Positions 7,275 to 58,527 of a stretch of DNA of 64,000 nt are shown in pieces. How positions within the stretch are numbered: position 1 is the stretch's first letter; each line of letters begins with the position of its first letter. The translations under genes and the position numbers were made by a program. Source of the DNA: Spirochaetia bacterium (GTDB taxonomy: Bacteria; Spirochaetota; Spirochaetia; DSM-2461); contig CAXXIA010000002.1 of assembly GCA_963666985.2 (NCBI GenBank), positions 1,984,001-2,048,000 of the forward strand. The letters are read 5' to 3'. Under the pieces are notes generated by a model. That model was not told the DNA's origin. It saw only the letters and a list, made by a program, of their open reading frames with translations, and searched no databases.

Positions 7275-8363
7275 TCAATTATCTTGTGCCGATCGTTTGA
7301 GTGAATCGCCGCGTCCCCAATCAACGGTGAGTCCTGCCTGCCGTGCAATGTCATTATAGAGTTCCGGGAGTTCATCCTTGGAAGAGTCTGCGGTAATGCT
7401 TTTTTTCCCCGGAAAAAGATTGTATTGAGACCTGAACGACTGAGGTGTAAAGCACGGCATAAGAACATTGGCTCCCGCCAGAAGTCCCTCGACGCGATAA
7501 TCCGCGTCCATACTGCCGAGAGCCGTTGTTGTCGGCATCCATGCGCTGCGGGTTAGCAGCCGGGTGAGCGCGATAACACGCAGTGTCAGAGGTACATCCC
7601 CAGCCGGTTCGTTTCGCAGAGGCGTCGCCGGATGGGGAATAAAGGGACCGATTCCGATCATGTCGAAATCAAACTCGTGAAAGTAGGCTATATCATGAGC
7701 GATATGGGATATTGTCTGACCCGGCACGCCGACCATAATGCCGCTCCCCGTTTGGTACCCCAAATCCCGTAAATCCCGGAGCGCTTGAAGCCGAGTTTCT
7801 ACGCTTCGATTTTCATGAAGGGAGGCATAAAGCGATTCATCGACAGCTTCAATACGAAGGAGATAGCGGTCCGCTCCGGCCTCTCTCCACTCGGCATAAT
7901 CGGAGCGCGGCCTTTCTCCCGCGGAGAGTGTTACGGCCATTCCGGTTTCGGTTTTTATTCGTTTGACAACATCTGAGAGCCGAGAGGCCGGCGTGGCGCC
8001 TTCTCCCGACTGAAGCACAACGGTTCGTATTCCCGCATTCGCTATTCGGCGGGCCGCCGCGGCGATATGATCCGCCGACATGTGATATCGCTTTAGTGCC
8101 CGATTCTTTCGGTTCAGACCGCAGTAAAAACATGTGTTGCCGCAGATGTTTGAAAATTCAATAAGTCCACGGATAAGCATCCGCGGTCCGCACGCCTCAT
8201 TCCTCATCTTTCTCGCTTCGGCGAGAAGAATCTCATGTTCCTCCGGGCCCCCCGCCCGCAGCAGAAGTTCTATATCGGATATGGATGGCGGCGGTTTCGG
8301 ATTATTCTGCGAACGGATGCCGCGGATTCGGTCGAGAGCGGCGATATAGTCTTTTCGTATCAT
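7275..8363 (-). CDS. hydE: [FeFe]-hydrogenase H-cluster radical SAM maturase HydE
   Basis: RGLIEFSNICGNTCFYC (CX3CX2C), VLQSGE, RYLLRIE, GIGPFIPHPATP, PTTTALG, GANVLMP; ATGA-coupled to hydF. Confidence 0.88.
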   Translation of the reverse strand: MIRKDYIAALDRIRGIRSQNNPKPPPSISDIELLLRAGGPEEHEILLAEARKMRNEACGPRMLIRGLIEFSNICGNTCFYCGLNRKNRALKRYHMSADHIAAAARRIANAGIRTVVLQSGEGATPASRLSDVVKRIKTETGMAVTLSAGERPRSDYAEWREAGADRYLLRIEAVDESLYASLHENRSVETRLQALRDLRDLGYQTGSGIMVGVPGQTISHIAHDIAYFHEFDFDMIGIGPFIPHPATPLRNEPAGDVPLTLRVIALTRLLTRSAWMPTTTALGSMDADYRVEGLLAGANVLMPCFTPQSFRSQYNLFPGKKSITADSSKDELPELYNDIARQAGLTVDWGRGDSLKRSAQDN

Positions 8364-9664
8364 GCTCCGACCCGGCTGTTTGTTTTGTTTTCAATGGCAT
8401 GCCTGTAAGCCTCCAGCGCCGCCGGGAACGGCGAAAGAGTCCGTTCAACAACGCCCTGCAGCGTGGAAATCGCAATGCCGTAATTGGTCATGGCAACACC
8501 GGCGGACCGGGCCTGCTCGATACGCCATAACATTTCGCGGCGGGTGAGGGTACATCCTCCGCAGTGAATTATCAGCCGATACCGGGAAAGATCCTCAGGG
8601 TAGTCTTTTCCGGCATAATGATCGATTTCGAGATGAATCCCGGAAAATTGCCGAAGCCATCGGGGAATCTTGACTCGGCCGATATCGTCCGCCAAGGGAT
8701 GATGCGAGCATGCTTCCGAAATGAGAATTCTATCTCCCTCTTTGAGTAAAGACAGCACCGCCGCGCCTTCCGCCAAATAGGAAATGTTCCCTTTATAGCG
8801 GGAGAACAAAATGGAAAAGGTTGTGCACGGAACATTGGACGGGGTGTCAGCGGTCATTTTCAGAACGATTTGCGAATCGCAGACAACCAGATCGGGCGGA
8901 TTCTTCAGGCAGGAGAGGTAGGCCGGGAACTCCCGTTCCTTAACAACGGTTACCGCGGCGTCGCTGTCGAGGGCGTCCCGTATCGACTGTACCTGCGGCA
9001 GTATGAGACGTCCTTTCGGGGCCTGGAGGTCGATCGGTACGATGAGAGCGACCACCGGGAGTCCTTTGCCGACGGGAAGCAGATCTCCCAGAATGGCCGG
9101 AGGGTTAAGAAAATCATCGGGGCATACCGCGATCAGATTTTTTTTCAGTTCCAGAATAATCGTTTCACGGAGATGAGCCGCCTCGGAGGCCGTGCGGCGC
9201 TCATTGGTTACCGAAGTACTTTCCATAATGTAAGAGCTTTTTTTTTCGAGCTCTTCAATCCATGTTTTGCTCGGTTTTTTCAGGTCCGTCTTGTTGATGA
9301 CAAAGATGATTGGAATCTTCCGATCTTTACAGGCTTCAATAATTTTCTCTTCAAAAGGAGTCCATACGTCGCTTTCGAGAATGATTAAAGCCACATCAGA
9401 TGCGGAAAGAGCCATGGTTGTTTTTTCGACGCGAAGAGCACCTAAAGACGATTCATCATCAATTCCCGCGGTATCCAGAAAAACAACGGGACCCAGCGGA
9501 AGCAGTTCCATCGATTTATAAACAACGTCGGTGGTTGTTCCTTCCGTGGAGGAAACAATAGAGGCGGGCTGATCGGCTATTGTATTGAGGAAGCTTGATT
9601 TGCCCGTGTTTGTTCTTCCGAAAATTCCGATATGCAGGCGAAGGGATTTGGGTGTTTTCATCAT
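8360..9664 (-). CDS. hydF: [FeFe]-hydrogenase maturation GTPase HydF
   Basis: GRTNTGKSS, GTTTD, DTAG, NKTD, APKGRLILPQ, CSH...HCGGC Fe-S ligands. Confidence 0.96.
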   Translation of the reverse strand: MMKTPKSLRLHIGIFGRTNTGKSSFLNTIADQPASIVSSTEGTTTDVVYKSMELLPLGPVVFLDTAGIDDESSLGALRVEKTTMALSASDVALIILESDVWTPFEEKIIEACKDRKIPIIFVINKTDLKKPSKTWIEELEKKSSYIMESTSVTNERRTASEAAHLRETIILELKKNLIAVCPDDFLNPPAILGDLLPVGKGLPVVALIVPIDLQAPKGRLILPQVQSIRDALDSDAAVTVVKEREFPAYLSCLKNPPDLVVCDSQIVLKMTADTPSNVPCTTFSILFSRYKGNISYLAEGAAVLSLLKEGDRILISEACSHHPLADDIGRVKIPRWLRQFSGIHLEIDHYAGKDYPEDLSRYRLIIHCGGCTLTRREMLWRIEQARSAGVAMTNYGIAISTLQGVVERTLSPFPAALEAYRHAIENKTNSRVGA

Positions 9665-9676
9665 TGCGGGGTTTCC

Positions 9677-11083
9677 TTAATCTTGATATCCGAGAGCCGA
9701 AAGCGCCGCCGGAGAAAATGATTTTTCAATAATGCTTCCGTCCAGTTTTTGTTCGAGGAATACGCGGAGAAACGGACGTTCCTCTTTGGGAGTGGAAATG
9801 TACTCCGTAACGAGTTTTGCCGTTTCCGTGTATCCGATATGAGGAATGAGCGCGGTAAGCACCATCGGTTCGCGGTCCAGCAAATCTCCGCAGACCTCCG
9901 GCGATGCGTCGATAAGAACAATGTGGGACCGCAGCATGATGTCGGCATTGCGGAGCAGCTTGAGCGCTTCGATGAACGTATCCGCGATGAGCGGGAGAAA
10001 TTCGTTTATTTGAAGAGTTCCCCCCGCCGAAGCTTCCGCGATAAGAGCCATATCGGCTTTTGCTTTCATGGCGGCTTGAATAACCGCTTCCGGAATCACC
10101 GGATTCACCTTGCCCGGCATAATCGATGAACCGACCTGAACGGCGGGCAGCTTTATTTCACCGGTAAAAGAAAGGAATCGCAGATCACGGGCCGCCTTTT
10201 GAAGATTTACGGCATGGGCGGTGATAATACCGGCGACTTCCACCAGCGAATCGGAATTGGCCGTTTGGTCCACTAAATTTTCCGCCCGGGCCAAACCGTA
10301 TCCGGTCAGTTCGCGTAAATTTTCAATTACTCGGAAAATATATCGTTTCGGCGCGGTGAGTCCCGTGCCGACCGCGGTACCGCCTATATTGACGACGCGC
10401 AGTCGTTCTTCGCATTTGAACGTGCGCCACCGGTCGCGGCCGAAAGCTTCCGAATATGAAGAGAAGATCGTGCCCAGCGTCATGGGCACGGCCGCTTGCC
10501 ACTCGGTTCTTCCGGTTGTAACAATGTGCGCGAAAGCCTTTTCTTTCTCCTGAAAGGCTCCTTGGAGCGCCTCCGTCGTACCGGCCAGTTTCCGAATCAA
10601 TTCGATAAGGCAGATTTTCAAGGCGCTTGGAAAGGTGTCGTTTGTCGATTGGTGAAGGTTCACGTGGGCTAGAGGATCGACGCCGTCATCTCCGTAGTCA
10701 CCGGGCCGCCGCCCCAGGAAAAGATTCGCCTGATTGGCGATAACCTCGTTGATGTTCATATTCAAGGACGTTCCCGCTCCGCCCTGGAGAGCGTCCACGG
10801 GAAACTCTTCATCCAATTCATGGGAAAGTATCCGGTCGCAGGCGTTTCTAATAGCCTCCGCCCTTCGGCCGTCCAGATAATTCAGTTCGTAATTTGTTTT
10901 CGCACAGGCCTTTTTAACAAGGGCATACGCACGAATCAGATGCGGATCCACCGGCCGGCCGGCGAGGGGAAAATTTTCAACCGCCCGAGCCGTATGGATG
11001 CCCCATAACGCGGAGGCGGGAATGTTTTTTTTCCCAAGGGTATCCGATTCTTCTCTGTAATGAGATTCTGTGTCGTCTTTCAC
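9677..11083 (-). CDS. aspA: Aspartate ammonia-lyase (fumarase/aspartase superfamily)
   Basis: QGGAGTS, QSTND, signature GSSIMPGKVNP. Confidence 0.9.
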   Translation of the reverse strand: MKDDTESHYREESDTLGKKNIPASALWGIHTARAVENFPLAGRPVDPHLIRAYALVKKACAKTNYELNYLDGRRAEAIRNACDRILSHELDEEFPVDALQGGAGTSLNMNINEVIANQANLFLGRRPGDYGDDGVDPLAHVNLHQSTNDTFPSALKICLIELIRKLAGTTEALQGAFQEKEKAFAHIVTTGRTEWQAAVPMTLGTIFSSYSEAFGRDRWRTFKCEERLRVVNIGGTAVGTGLTAPKRYIFRVIENLRELTGYGLARAENLVDQTANSDSLVEVAGIITAHAVNLQKAARDLRFLSFTGEIKLPAVQVGSSIMPGKVNPVIPEAVIQAAMKAKADMALIAEASAGGTLQINEFLPLIADTFIEALKLLRNADIMLRSHIVLIDASPEVCGDLLDREPMVLTALIPHIGYTETAKLVTEYISTPKEERPFLRVFLEQKLDGSIIEKSFSPAALSALGYQD

Positions 11084-11910
11084 GTTTTCCCTCTTTGATG
11101 CGGCGCTTCACACCTGTGTTCCCGCGACGCGGATGAGATTTGAGAGCGCATGATGGATTCTTCGATTTGGGCGACATTCTCCGCAAAGGCCGAAGCGGTT
11201 CGTTGACGCGGGCGTTCCAGAGTGATGGCGATGTCGTGAACTATGGTTCCTTCGTTCATCGTAAGAACCCTGTCCGCTAAGAGAACCGCTTCTCCGATGT
11301 CATGGGTAACAAGAAAAATCGTCGGCTGCCGTTCCTTCCATAACCGATCCAGTTCTTGCTGAAGCTGCAAGCGCGTAAAGGCGTCGAGAGCGCCGAACGG
11401 TTCATCCAAAAGCCATAAGGAGCGGTTCTGGCATAATGCCCGTGCAAGATTAATGCGCTGTGCCATCCCCCCGGAAAGATGGCGCGGATAGGATGCAAGC
11501 CGCTTTTCCATGTGTACAAGAGTCGCGGCGTCCCGAATACGTCTGCGGGCATCCTCTTCCGGCACGTGTTCGGAGCGAAGAGCCAGCAGCAGATTTTTTT
11601 CAACCGTAAGCCAGGGAAGCAGCCTGGCATCCTGGAAGACCAGAGCCGAGACACCGCGGGCCCGATCCTGCCGAACCCCTTCAAATTCGATTGTTCCGTC
11701 ATTGGGTGTACGCAGACCGGCGATAAGACGAAGTAAAGACGTTTTTCCGCAGCCGCTGGAACCGACAATGGCTGTAAACCCGCCCGCATCGACACGAAGA
11801 GAAAGGGCGTTGACCGCCGTAACAGGATTGGAGCCATTCTCGTAGATGCATGTAAGATGGCGGAGATTTACGGCAATCAAAGGCGCTCCTTTGATTGCTC
11901 GGCCGTCCAC
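11080..11910 (-). CDS. ABC transporter ATP-binding subunit (SsuB/TauB/NitT type)
   Basis: GSSGCGKTS, LSGGMAQR, LLDEPFGALD, VTHD. Confidence 0.93.
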   Translation of the reverse strand: MDGRAIKGAPLIAVNLRHLTCIYENGSNPVTAVNALSLRVDAGGFTAIVGSSGCGKTSLLRLIAGLRTPNDGTIEFEGVRQDRARGVSALVFQDARLLPWLTVEKNLLLALRSEHVPEEDARRRIRDAATLVHMEKRLASYPRHLSGGMAQRINLARALCQNRSLWLLDEPFGALDAFTRLQLQQELDRLWKERQPTIFLVTHDIGEAVLLADRVLTMNEGTIVHDIAITLERPRQRTASAFAENVAQIEESIMRSQISSASREHRCEAPHQRGKT

Positions 11911-12671
11911 GGAGAAAGGCGGAGCGTTATCGCGCCGAGTATGCCCTCAAAGATAAATCCCAGCACCCCAATCGCCAGAATGCCGACCAGAACGCGGTCG
12001 GTTCTCGCCATTTCCTGTGAGTCCAAGATGAGATATCCAAGCCCCGAAGCGGCGGCAAAAAGTTCGGCTCCGACCAAAGCGCGCCAAGAATATCCGAAAC
12101 CGATGCGTAAGCCCGTTACTATGTGGGGAAAGGCGCCGGGAAGAAGAATAAAGCGAAGGCGATCAAATCCGGAGAGATTCAGGGTTGCCGCCAGTTCGTG
12201 CCATCGGGTATCAACCTGTTGAAAACCGTCAAAGGCGTTTAAGAATATGGGAAAAAAAGCGGCTAATACTATAACGGCGATCTTCGAACTTTCGCCTATA
12301 CCGAACCAAAGGATGAGCAGCGGAATAAGGGCCAGCGGCGGAGTTGCCCGCAGAAATGAGAGAAGAAACGAACTTCGTTCCATCCAGCGGATTCTCCGGT
12401 GAAGAAACAGAGCCAAGGGAAGGGCAATGGAAACAGTTATGCCGTATCCGATAAAGACGCGGCGAAGACTGACGGCAATATGATGCGGCAGCGACCCGGA
12501 GAGAGTTAACCTCCATCCTTCGCGCAGAACCTTTTCCGGCGAAGGAATCAAATAGTCATTTATAAGTTCCAATTTGGAAAGAAGACCCCACAGCAGGAGC
12601 AGCATTAGCGGCAGCCATGATTTTCTTATAAGAGTTGAAAATCTTAAAGGAGATCTCCGAAACAACGTCAT
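11877..12671 (-). CDS. ABC transporter permease (SsuC/TauC type)
   Basis: Six TM segments, ILWFGIGE, WRALVGAE...GLG motifs. Confidence 0.92.
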   Translation of the reverse strand: MTLFRRSPLRFSTLIRKSWLPLMLLLLWGLLSKLELINDYLIPSPEKVLREGWRLTLSGSLPHHIAVSLRRVFIGYGITVSIALPLALFLHRRIRWMERSSFLLSFLRATPPLALIPLLILWFGIGESSKIAVIVLAAFFPIFLNAFDGFQQVDTRWHELAATLNLSGFDRLRFILLPGAFPHIVTGLRIGFGYSWRALVGAELFAAASGLGYLILDSQEMARTDRVLVGILAIGVLGFIFEGILGAITLRLSPWTAEQSKERL

Positions 12672-12681
12672 TTTTGACTAT

Positions 12682-13647
12682 CTACCGGCCCAAGGCGGAG
12701 GGCAAAATGAAATCGTCCGGATTCACTTCCCGTTCGATCATACCCTGCCGAAGAAGAAACCGTATGTCATCGTTCATGCTCGCCACGTCTTCCGGAGAAA
12801 GACTGAGTGTAAAATCGGACCAGTCGTAAAGCATGCGGGCATCGTCCATACTGATTTCATGCTCCGCGGCGCCGATTGCGAGGGCCTCTTCGGTATTGAG
12901 CTCAATGTAATCCATGGCTTTTTCTTGAACGGAGATATACCGGCTTATAAGTTCCGGATATTCATTCCAAAACTCCGGACGCACTCCAACCACAAGTTTC
13001 GGAATCGCATAGCCTTCGGCCGTTGCGAGAAGACGGCAGCCTGCCTCTTTGTTCCGGATAATAAGGCTTGCCGCCTGCAGTGCCGCATCAACTTGGCCGT
13101 CCAGCAGCGCCGCCCGAGACTGCGGAAGACCCATGGAAAAAAATTCGATGTCCGATTCCGTAAGACCTTCCGAGGCCAGGGCCGCGATAAGAATCTGATG
13201 AAGCACCGTTCCTTTGGGACCGGCAACTTTCGCTCCCCGTAATTCGGCAATTGTTTGAGGACCGTTCGGACCCGTCATGATGCCGAAAGTTTTTTGCGGA
13301 CGGCTGAATCCGGATGCGATAAGAACCTGATTCCCCGCGGCATTCGCCAGAACAACCGAAGTACTGTTGATAACGGAGGCAATATCGAGAGAGCCTGCGG
13401 CCATTGCTTCCGCCTGGCGGGCTCCGGAGGTTATTTCGTGCCAGTTAATTGTAATTTCATCGTCTTCAAATTCTTGTTCGAGCAATCCTTGTTCCTTCAT
13501 GATGATGATGGGCAGGTTGAAGGGAGAGGTAACATAGGAAACGTTTATTGCAGTCGGCTTCGGATTTATTTCAGCCCGGCCTGCCGAAACAAAAAGGAAG
13601 AGTGCCGCGGAAACCGTCAGAATGATAAAAATGCCGTTTTTCTTCAT
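12682..13647 (-). CDS. ABC transporter substrate-binding protein (SsuA/NMT1-Thi5 type)
   Basis: Signal peptide; SG..QAEAMAAGSLDIA and LRGAKVAGPKGT motifs. Confidence 0.88.
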   Translation of the reverse strand: MKKNGIFIILTVSAALFLFVSAGRAEINPKPTAINVSYVTSPFNLPIIIMKEQGLLEQEFEDDEITINWHEITSGARQAEAMAAGSLDIASVINSTSVVLANAAGNQVLIASGFSRPQKTFGIMTGPNGPQTIAELRGAKVAGPKGTVLHQILIAALASEGLTESDIEFFSMGLPQSRAALLDGQVDAALQAASLIIRNKEAGCRLLATAEGYAIPKLVVGVRPEFWNEYPELISRYISVQEKAMDYIELNTEEALAIGAAEHEISMDDARMLYDWSDFTLSLSPEDVASMNDDIRFLLRQGMIEREVNPDDFILPSALGR

Positions 13648-13690
13648 GGTAAAGATCCTTCATATCCGCATCTGCGGGATTTTAATTGAG

Positions 13691-13939
13691 TTAGAGTTTT
13701 GCGAGAGTTGATTTCACCGTGACATCGGGTATCATTCCGATTTTGCCGGTTAAATCTCCGATTTTGTCCGTTGACGCGTCGACGATCAGCGTAATGATAT
13801 TCAGGTTTCTTTCCCGATACGGGAGGCCCAATCGGCCGATAATGATTTCACCGAATTGGGATAATAACGAATTAACTTCGGCTACGGATGAGGCTCTGTT
13901 CTTGACGATAATCGCGATAACTCCTACGGCTTTCTGCAT
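13691..13939 (-). CDS. TM1266-family putative iron-only hydrogenase system regulator (ACT-like, 82 aa)
   Basis: VGVIAIIV..VNSLLS..IIGRLGLPY..LTGKIG.IPDVTVKS pattern; GGAG SD upstream of ATG 13939. Confidence 0.88.
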   Translation of the reverse strand: MQKAVGVIAIIVKNRASSVAEVNSLLSQFGEIIIGRLGLPYRERNLNIITLIVDASTDKIGDLTGKIGMIPDVTVKSTLAKL

Positions 13940-14010
13940 AAGACATCTCCTTTCCGGCAATGGAATCGGAGCGATCGCACAATCGCGTATCGCCATTTTT
14001 CCATGACCAA

Positions 14011-14173
14011 ATGAACCTGAGGGAAAAGGATAATGTGCTTTGATTAGAAAGGTCGCAGAGTATCCGCCCGCCGCAATTCCGCACGCATATTGCGGCCATT
14101 CCGGCATCGTGGATTGATGAGAAACTCAATTACGACCCTCGGCTTCAGACGGTATCCTTACCTCAGGCTGTAT
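14011..14173 (-). ncRNA. Candidate structured RNA (leader of the hyd operon, or 6S-like RNA)
   Basis: Nested complementary blocks 14153-14167/14016-14032, 14121-14139/14049-14064, 14071-14077/14089-14095; mismatches become G-U pairs on the minus strand. Confidence 0.45.
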
Positions 14174-14184
14174 GTCGGATTTCT

Positions 14185-14206
14185 ATACCGTTTCTGAGAA
14201 CGGTAT
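14185..14206. promoter_or_regulatory. Palindromic operator-like site
   Basis: ATACCGTT-N6-AACGGTAT perfect 8-bp inverted repeat. Confidence 0.45.
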
Positions 14207-14433
14207 GCGAATCGCTGTATTAGCTTTGCAGTATCGGGAAAAAATAGCAAGAAGAAAATCGAATCGGTTCGGTATTTCCCGCATCTTCGACGATTCAATC
14301 CGAAATTCAGAGCATTTAAGTCCGAATCGATCACCGGGGCGGCCTGTTGGATCACGGCAATTTTCTTCAACGGTAATTCCGCACCATGAAATCAAACAGC
14401 ACCGGAATCTACAAATTTATCCGTGAATTACTG

Positions 14434-14464
14434 AAAAAAGCCGGTGCCCCAAAGACACCGGCTT
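14434..14464 (-). terminator. Intrinsic terminator after gnd
   Basis: AAGCCGGTG...CACCGGCTT stem followed by a T tract on the minus strand. Confidence 0.8.
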
Positions 14465-14540
14465 CAATTCATCTCTTCAATTCATCTCTTCAATTCGTGC
14501 GTCGTATGTCGTACGTCGCACGCGTTATCGGGATTGCTTC

Positions 14541-16388: not shown

Positions 16389-17660
16389 TCAATCCTTGAA
16401 TCGGCTCTCATGAGCCCACAGCCCCAGAGCCGGATTCCCCACGAAAAAAATCTCCTCGCCGTCCACCGTATTCCATCCGGTTTTCAGCTTTTTCACATCG
16501 TATTTCTCCAGAAGCGGACCCACTTCGGCGTAATTGAATCCCACGCCTTCGGTTTCTTTCCGGCTCAAATGCCCCGGCGCGTAGGTTATGGAAAAGCGGC
16601 CTTCGGAGGAGCCATGAACCAGATGCGCCGCGGCGCTCAGATTCGAACCGATGTCCTCGTTTTCTTCCACGGCCTTCAGCGTGTTCGGCGTGCCCTTATA
16701 CCCGTACTTGCGAATCAGGGCGTCGATTTCCTTATCCTCGCCGAACTCCTTCACTCCCGGTGCCATCACGATCAGCTCGCCGCCGTCGGCCATGGCCATG
16801 CGCGTTCGGTAGATGGATTTATTGCCCAGCCAGGTGCTGCGGAACTCTTCGGGTTCCAGATACACCACGCATTTCCGAATCGGCTTTTCCACCATGGTGA
16901 AGTTCACCTTAACGGCCAAATCGGCGGCCTTTTCAAAACATTCCCGGCCGTCTCCGATGAAAAGACCGCGCAGAACCAGAGCTCCGTCTTCATCAGGTCC
17001 CAGCACCGTGAGCGCCCAGAGAATCGGCAAATGGGAACCGAAATGATCGTAAGCGTAATCCAGAACGGCCCGAACAGGCGTGTCGGCTCGGCCCATCATC
17101 CGTTCCATGCCGTGCACCGCGCCCAGAAAGTGGCTCTTGTGAATCCCCTCGCTGCCGCCGACACCCACGAAGATGTTCTTCGTATAGTTGGCCATTCCCA
17201 CCACTTCATGCGGCACCACCTGACCCGGCGAAAACACCAAGTCGTGTCCCCCCTCGGCCAGAAGGGTATTCACCTGGGCGGGCCATTCGTAATCCAGTTT
17301 TCCTTCGGAGACTTCTTTCATGAATGAACCTGGAACCACGCCCAAAGTCGTTAAATCGGTGCGCCATTTGTGCTCGCGGAAGAGATCGTGGGAAACACCC
17401 GGAAACATTCGGTCCATCTCAGGCTCGGTCATGGCCGTATGGGTTCCCAGCGCGGGCATGATATCCGTAACGGCGGGCCCGTAATACTCCACAAGATCCG
17501 CCGTTAACTCTCCGGCCCGGGAATAGAACCGGGTAATGTCCGGGGGAATGGCCAGCACTTTTTTCCGCTCGCCGATTCGTCCCAGAGCCTCGAAGAGGCC
17601 CGCTTTCATCTCTTCGCGGCTGATAACGGCATCCTCACCGCCGCGCTCAAAATACATCAT
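16389..17660 (-). CDS. LarA/lactate racemase-family protein, probable D-mannonate/D-gluconate 2-epimerase (GntE-like)
   Basis: PDITR, ALGTH, PHEVVGMANYTKN LarA-type motifs; context between uronate genes and gnd. Confidence 0.8.
   Translation of the reverse strand: MMYFERGGEDAVISREEMKAGLFEALGRIGERKKVLAIPPDITRFYSRAGELTADLVEYYGPAVTDIMPALGTHTAMTEPEMDRMFPGVSHDLFREHKWRTDLTTLGVVPGSFMKEVSEGKLDYEWPAQVNTLLAEGGHDLVFSPGQVVPHEVVGMANYTKNIFVGVGGSEGIHKSHFLGAVHGMERMMGRADTPVRAVLDYAYDHFGSHLPILWALTVLGPDEDGALVLRGLFIGDGRECFEKAADLAVKVNFTMVEKPIRKCVVYLEPEEFRSTWLGNKSIYRTRMAMADGGELIVMAPGVKEFGEDKEIDALIRKYGYKGTPNTLKAVEENEDIGSNLSAAAHLVHGSSEGRFSITYAPGHLSRKETEGVGFNYAEVGPLLEKYDVKKLKTGWNTVDGEEIFFVGNPALGLWAHESRFKD

Positions 17661-58452: not shown

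Positions 58453-58527
<75 letters not shown>

Follow-up and report, generated by a model that had tools for sequence, protein, structure and literature searches.

A conserved RNA hairpin and a predicted TM1266-dependent switch in the leader of a spirochaete operon with hydE and hydF

Introduction

A long nested RNA structure lies in front of a run of genes that includes two maturases of [FeFe]-hydrogenase in the genome of a spirochaete, and the question raised by this locus is what such a leader does and what, if anything, recognises it. The locus was studied within a stretch of 64,000 nucleotides (the window), in which all positions below are counted unless stated otherwise. The reading reached, to which a probability of roughly 0.6 is assigned, is that the leader of the TM1266-ABC-aspA-hydF-hydE mRNA is a two-state translational switch in which repression is predicted to be held by the TM1266 protein.

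Gene content and features of the locus

The leader is flanked on one side by a terminator-like hairpin behind gnd and on the other by a minus-strand run of genes that encode, in order, a TM1266-family protein, an ABC importer (three genes, SsuA/NMT1-like), an aspartase-like lyase (aspA), HydF and HydE. The features, in the direction of transcription, are:

14222..14250 (-), putative promoter read by eye: TTGCTA (14250-14245), 17 nt, AAAGCT (14227-14222), with TG before AAAGCT
14185..14206 (-), perfect 8-bp hairpin (inverted repeat) ahead of the motif, -7.7 kcal/mol
14136..14167 (-), conserved core: 32-nt hairpin, proposed binding site, predicted OFF when formed (covariation)
14049..14135 (-), lineage-specific apical arm with the second helix and apical hairpin (folds)
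14016..14032 (-), switch strand (duplex energies, folds)
13945..13955 (-), Shine-Dalgarno region GGAAAGGAGAU (pairing probabilities)
13691..13939 (-), TM1266-family protein, 82 aa, proposed RNA-binding repressor (TIGR03959, PF21699, PDB 2NZC)
12682..13647 (-), ABC substrate-binding protein, NMT1/SsuA-like (PF09084; under the SsuA cut-off)
11877..12671 (-), ABC permease, SsuC/TauC-like (under cut-offs)
11080..11880 (-), ABC ATPase, SsuB-like (under cut-offs)
9677..11083 (-), aspartate ammonia-lyase-like protein (NF008909, 488 bits against a cut-off of 510)
8360..9664 (-), HydF GTPase (TIGR03918, over cut-off)
7275..8363 (-), HydE radical SAM maturase (TIGR03956, over cut-off)

Transcription of the run is presumed; the putative promoter is absent from the output of a consensus promoter scan, and in many relatives a promoter-like site was seen by eye just 5' of the motif. 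The names of the nearest TM1266 homologues mark the organism as a spirochaete. The assembly is 93% complete and has seven Pfam matches to the [FeFe]-hydrogenase domain. It yielded no HydG over cut-off, although the operon (7275-13939, minus strand) has both hydE and hydF. A second strain shows 15 differences from window positions 13600-14446, with none in the motif, the switch strand or the Shine-Dalgarno, too few to count as evidence; its A-to-G change in the 14185..14206 hairpin retains the pair as G.U. Further upstream, just before the terminator-like hairpin of gnd, a 13-nt unit is repeated about three times (14446-14519), and in the second strain a 72-nt stretch of these repeats is replaced by 35 other letters. 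A nickel-pincer-dependent putative hexonate epimerase (NF052594, over cut-off) is encoded upstream of gnd at 16389-17660 (-).

The rod and the conserved hairpin

The rod described in the initial annotation is present in the sequence: 14167-14153 can pair with 14032-14016, followed by a 13/16-nt bubble, a second helix (14140-14121 with 14064-14049) and an apical hairpin, and the minimum free energy fold adds a weak helix of 3-4 bp within the bubble. Folding of 14005-14180 as the minus strand gave -62.3 kcal/mol (z -3.53; 0/200 shuffles as good) against -53.5 kcal/mol for the plus strand (z -1.43; 17/200), in agreement with the preference that had been expressed for the operon-sense strand. The distance from the rod end to the ATG at 13939, put earlier at about 75 nt, is 77 nt. 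A covariance search with Rfam 15 likewise supported the view that no known riboswitch core is present, since no family reached its gathering score in the 64-kb window other than one tRNA gene (58453-58525, plus strand); at E<=10 no family overlapped the rod convincingly. Two other identities were considered and discarded. A TPP riboswitch, suggested by the words CUGAG, ACC and UAAU as seen by eye, had no Rfam support, and a repeat or mobile element was rejected because the rod sequence is single-copy in the genome.

DNA searches with the rod sequence found nothing in 40 of 40 related genomes, and the DNA upstream of TM1266 genes was therefore collected instead (99 loci; for the Spirochaetia set, 70 of 112 places were retrieved). 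Comparison of these homologous leaders did reveal a conserved, covarying element, but it is a 32-nt hairpin (14167-14136, minus strand) and not the rod. The motif reads CCU-GA-GGU-AA-GGA-loop-UCU-GAA-GCC-GA-GGG, that is, three 3-bp helices split by two tandem G.A/A.R loops; its 3' strand and inner pairs had been missed earlier. Both strands fit YCUGM-N3/4-RAGG, making the duplex pseudo-two-fold symmetric with two half-sites head to head. In other leaders the half-site is repeated in tandem hairpins, the last one often over the Shine-Dalgarno, or occurs three times in all; half-sites may also be nested, and the inserts reach about 40 nt.

Covariation was assessed in 38 model-aligned sequences, where 85.7% of cells are paired and 24 two-sided changes occur, such changes being found in 6 of the 9 pairs, while the outer U.G pair is invariant (38/38). 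None of 500 shuffles came up to the real alignment in paired fraction, number of two-sided changes or covariation score, and all six slid registers scored below the true one, both being controls that leave the kinship among the sequences in place. A MAFFT alignment of 31 sequences that had not been fitted to the model gave 81% paired cells and 21 two-sided cells. With a fixed scorer, 35 of the 99 TM1266 upstream regions scored at least 2, many such genes being operon-internal or stand-alone. No Rfam match was obtained in 20 motif-bearing loci. No account of the hairpin RNA was found in the literature, including the main texts of PMC5737381, PMC11109978 and PMC8632094, although the large supplements of the first two may list it, and motif terms are absent from the readable supplements of PMC6429828 and PMC8632094. 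Taken together, a real conserved switch is very likely.

The inner rod and apical arm (14049..14135) differ in sequence from the closest relatives, which have another long stem there. A sensing role for the rod is thus not borne out: the conserved unit is the 32-nt hairpin, and this is destroyed when the rod forms.

Two mutually exclusive folds

The free fold of the whole leader is the rod (-87.1), and with the motif forced the value is -76.8. In the forced fold the freed segment 14031-14022 pairs with the Shine-Dalgarno, of which 8 of the first 9 positions have an unpaired probability of <=0.03; the region 13945..13955 is then mostly paired at >=0.97, and in the free fold it is partly open. 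The switch strand (14016..14032) can therefore enter either of two duplexes, one with the 5' strand of the motif (-18.3 kcal/mol) and one, through 14031-14022, with the Shine-Dalgarno region (-12.1). Folds of the growing transcript show hairpin pairing at 0.96-1.0 until 14060, falling to 0.16-0.21 at 14035 and to about 0 by 14025, so that a ligand would have about 100 nt of synthesis in which to capture it. The forced OFF fold lies about 10 kcal/mol above the rod, so that control has to be exerted kinetically unless binding is tight.

The same plan, with its letters changed, is kept in the leaders of the closest TM1266 relatives (L142, L145 and L146; 70-76% identity), where an upstream hairpin, the motif, an unrelated long stem and a double-pairing strand follow one another. 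The hairpin at the position equivalent to 14185..14206 is unrelated in sequence, and the switch strand pairs at -18.5 to -19.2 with the motif and at -14.6 to -18.7 with the Shine-Dalgarno. Among 38 leaders examined, 28 have a terminator and 10 lack one by the rule used. The 5' strand of the motif pairs over the terminator stem in 23 of the 28 (five fail the overlap test), and this pairing beats shuffles (<=5/100) in 16/28, against 1/28 for the 3' strand.

From these computed folds the following sequence of events is proposed. The hairpin (14167-14136) would fold first during RNA synthesis. If it is unheld, the strand 14032-14016 would invade about 100 nt later and form the rod, leaving the Shine-Dalgarno largely free (ON); if it is held, that strand would pair with the Shine-Dalgarno instead (OFF), the apical arm (14049..14135) serving presumably as a spacer that brings the switch strand beside the motif. 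Most relatives would make the same choice between an antiterminator and a terminator, and in some the half-site itself would cover the Shine-Dalgarno. The rod is accordingly read as the ON-state, anti-sequestering fold, with good probability, and in both types of platform, terminator and Shine-Dalgarno, the modelled OFF state is the one with the hairpin formed. The likeliest holder of the hairpin would be the TM1266 protein, the two-fold symmetry of which could match the two half-sites; it would probably act in trans and probably be modulated by a small molecule from the maturation of the H-cluster.

The TM1266 protein

A crystal structure of TM1266 has been available since 2006; the protein has no DNA-binding domain and is labelled 'putative regulator'. 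The product of 13691..13939 belongs to this family by TIGR03959 (105.3 bits, cut-off 60.8) and PF21699 (107.2, cut-off 27), and matches PDB 2NZC with an E-value of 8e-14. Its predicted structure (pLDDT 90.6) superimposes on 2NZC with Z 15.2 and an rmsd of 1.5 over 80 aligned residues, on the C-terminal domain of NikR (2Y3Y, 2BJ1, 2CA9) with Z 10.8-11.6 and an rmsd of 2.3-2.6, and on ACT domains with Z about 10.5. It is a single domain of 82 residues, and the alignment covers only residues of about 50-143 of NikR. Unlike NikR, therefore, TM1266 is without the N-terminal ribbon-helix-helix DNA-binding domain and without the conserved His/Cys nickel ligands, no conserved His or Cys column being present among 99 TM1266 sequences, and a metal-dependent DNA repressor of the NikR type is unlikely for this reason. 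In the same 99 sequences R36, G38, P40, I49, G65 and G68 are invariant, and positions K3, R4, K66, K76 and K81 are basic in 81-96% (81-100% with R36). One report (PMC12626770) gives 2NZC as a homotetramer. An oligomer that is itself symmetric, carries conserved basic residues and lacks a DNA-binding domain would suit a symmetric RNA site. It is rather probable, judged from sequence and models, that TM1266 binds the hairpin RNA and represses.

Earlier papers place a TM1266-hydG unit under Rex in Caldicellulosiruptor bescii and Clostridium thermocellum (PMC6391272, PMC8457756), the first of them describing the regulon of the small regulator as one that 'remains unknown and unpredicted'. Of two further sources, one reports that the TM1266 gene of Thermotoga neapolitana is induced together with hydE and hydG (PMC7039931), and the other mentions TM1266 in a gene cluster (10.1101/2023.11.02.564894).

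Association of the motif with TM1266

Among 301 Spirochaetia genomes, 107 have TM1266 and 88 have a hydG-like match. The upstream regions of hydG were compared in a chosen subset of 16 genomes with TM1266 elsewhere and eight without TM1266 (no PF21699 at E<=0.01; 88-99% complete). By eye, in counts that were not blind, the motif was present in the hydG leaders of 15/16 and 0/8, respectively. The fixed scorer (>=2) gave 11/16 against 1/8 (p 0.027; background 14/600), a p value that is overstated because five of the eight TM1266-less genomes are of one family; the scorer, like the covariance model, was tuned on TM1266 leaders. The sole scorer match in the TM1266-less group lies inside an upstream ORF. 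TM1266-ABC operons are preceded by the motif also in genomes lacking both hydG and hydF.

A second comparison used the phylum of a Desulfobacterales genome (G318), in which 10 of 201 genomes have TM1266 and 37 have a hydG-like match. Across 44 loci the model found six matches at E<0.1, all in TM1266-bearing genomes, and by eye the motif is present at eight of the ten TM1266 genes; in G318 the only TM1266 gene is without a clear motif, whereas both hydG copies are preceded by one. The TM1266-less genomes of this phylum contributed 30 loci, seven of them thiH-like genes behind a TPP riboswitch and at least four short of the operon start. The HydG-model matches at L241, L243 and L245-L249 (about 330-450 bits), which stand behind TPP-riboswitch-like leaders, are probably thiH, and TIGR03955 thus over-calls hydG in this phylum. 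The remaining TM1266-less loci include one clear motif before hydG (L219:4041-4072, genome G437, with no TM1266 at E<=0.1), a genuine exception if the TM1266 gene is not simply missing from the assembly. By eye, this motif stands just behind a transposase-like sequence.

The element was found to travel with its candidate RNA-binding protein also when the two are encoded apart, G437 being the one exception, and from the sequences compared the motif appears to follow TM1266 more closely than any maturase. A ligand that is made or carried by TM1266 and bound by the RNA would give the same co-occurrence, and the tracking is hence no proof of binding.

The window and three or four relatives supplied a pattern that was also run over 185,579 genomes without gene information. 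It returned 24 matches, 16 of which lie 73-594 nt upstream of a TM1266 gene (one of these, L127, repeats a locus used in the pattern design). The 16 span at least six phyla, including Spirochaetota, Omnitrophota, Planctomycetota, Caldiserica, a Desulfovibrio and a bin labelled Patescibacteria. One further match (L118) precedes hydG in a genome with TM1266 elsewhere, and another is at a contig end with a promoter and a terminator. Six matches have no TM1266 nearby; four of them read as coding by eye, and the one such genome that was checked is without TM1266. The covariance model is a weak search tool, with 25 matches in 151 genomes (eight at TM1266 genes, one at a contig end and 16 chance-like), and it gave no score to three Clostridia records, in all of which motif variants with terminators were seen by eye before TM1266. 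In the genome studied here the model found only 14136..14167 at E<=0.05, and no motif at the six hydrogenase loci searched (six of the seven Pfam matches). In the Caldiserica locus (L111) the motif and a terminator are followed by a 171-aa membrane protein resembling a transporter S component, and then by TM1266. A second TM1266 paralog of the genome studied here (G000:C2:2433374-2433646, plus strand; L030) ends an iron/cobalamin-type ABC operon (2430350-2433377), the leader of which shows no motif by eye; the operon is divergent from one with a small GTPase, an ATPase and a binding protein, an arrangement that is similar in L028 and L031.

Relation to known systems and alternative explanations

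Protein-dependent attenuation is well known from PyrR on the Bacillus pyr leader, TRAP on trp and HutP on hut. The proposal made here resembles these in that an oligomeric protein of small size, whose gene is the first of the operon or lies elsewhere, would hold an anti-antiterminator hairpin, with termination or sequestration of the ribosome binding site as the outcome. It differs in the RNA, which has no Rfam match, in the NikR C-terminal/ACT-like fold of the protein, in the two-fold tandem-G.A site, and in that binding is here only proposed. The dual-hairpin sites of CsrA/RsmA and ANTAR, which are loop motifs, are similar in consisting of at least two short half-sites that vary in spacing and of which one often covers the Shine-Dalgarno, as suits a dimeric binder; the half-site in the present case is a helix with tandem G.A pairs, and two of them can nest head to head. 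The hairpin RNA family and its proposed binder are new, and the mechanism, a protein-held attenuator or operator, is of an already known kind.

In one alternative, the hairpin is itself a metabolite riboswitch whose ligand would be a metal complex, a by-product of HydG or an intermediate of the H-cluster, and TM1266 would serve as a carrier or enzyme under the same control. Two features of such riboswitches as a kind, a covarying 5'-leader structure and a mutually exclusive platform, were both found in silico, and the layout is a classic one, with a promoter, an aptamer-like element and a terminator or Shine-Dalgarno platform. Biosynthetic and importer genes would both be controlled, as with cofactor riboswitches, and the motif of G437 occurs without a TM1266 gene. 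Set against this are a core of only about 30 nt made of two symmetric half-sites; the nested, tandem or threefold arrangement of half-sites in a leader, with inserts to about 40 nt, which fits a multimeric protein better than a single pocket; and the loss of most motifs where hydG persists without TM1266. A riboswitch is on balance doubtful, and as between the two the genomic evidence leans to a protein-bound switch.

If TM1266 is instead a partner or passenger, another protein (K-turn-type, ribosomal or a maturase) might hold the hairpin. Helices with tandem G.A pairs are often protein-binding sites. In a kink-turn, a 3-nt bulge separates a canonical stem from the tandem G.A pairs. The motif shares with the kink-turn and K-loop the tandem G.A pairs beside a short helix and the CUGA word, but the alignments show 0-1 unpaired nucleotides in place of the 3-nt bulge, and two such loops face each other. 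The occurrence of the motif in genomes lacking hydG and hydF counts against those maturases as the holder, and a universal protein would leave its loss from TM1266-less genomes unexplained, making this explanation a poor candidate.

The repeats might also be DNA operators for a transcription factor, the RNA folds being incidental. Each strand is indeed a short quasi-palindrome (CCT..AGG), directly repeated near a promoter, and some TM1266 proteins carry the database label 'CopG family transcriptional regulator'. The spacing, however, differs by tens of bases from case to case, and the inserts form stems of their own; the pairs covary, and the U.G pair that never changes is specific to one strand; the 5' strand shows complementarity to terminators further downstream; and TM1266 aligns solely to the C-terminal domain of NikR. 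Operators of this kind are very improbable.

The initial annotation had proposed either a cis-regulatory leader or a 6S RNA. The first part stands, given the conserved leader hairpin and the exclusive folds. The second can practically be set aside: the rod has the length (about 150-180 nt) and central bubble of 6S RNA, and the real 6S of this genome is unaccounted for, none having been found anywhere in it, but RF00013 gives no score at E<=10 in the region or the genome, the rod lies in an mRNA leader with no terminator-like site after it and runs on into the ribosome binding site, and its inner sequence is unconserved, whereas the hairpin that it destroys is conserved. As to where the genome's 6S might lie, it was not found at zapA (C1:1495373), behind which the gap is short, and rny (C1:148081) is not adjacent to zapA.

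Importers, genomes without maturases, and significance

The importer genes behind the motif extend beyond this genome. In the spirochaetes of one family (f2), 10 of 11 genomes have TM1266, one of 11 has hydF and none of the 11 has hydG. Five genomes of the family (G101, G025, G075, G185 and G146; 96-100% complete) have 4-7 hydrogenase-domain matches each, some of which may be sensory or inactive forms, and hydF is present in 0/5. In all four f2 loci examined (L201-L203 and L205), TM1266 leads an NMT1-type ABC operon behind the motif. The binding protein of the window (12682-13647) is not close to those of f2. The NMT1-type importers under the motif may take up an H-cluster precursor. A more far-reaching and tentative possibility is that TM1266 is an RNA-binding sensor of the organometallic H-cluster precursor, providing the first feedback control on the building of the [FeFe]-hydrogenase cofactor, with the importers fetching the precursor and the spirochaetes that lack maturases being auxotrophs.

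A defined 32-nt RNA target makes the question of the TM1266 regulon testable. If the reading of TM1266 is true, [FeFe]-hydrogenase maturation would be controlled post-transcriptionally as well, a point of relevance to biological hydrogen production, and the NikR/ACT fold would have a new role in RNA binding. The motif flags ABC importers in hydrogenase-rich, maturase-less genomes, pointing to uptake of a cofactor precursor. Were this true, spirochaetes with 4-7 hydrogenases and without hydG (as in this genome) or without hydG and hydF (as in f2) would be H-cluster auxotrophs, scavenging the Fe-CO-CN cofactor from their neighbours as other microbes scavenge vitamins.
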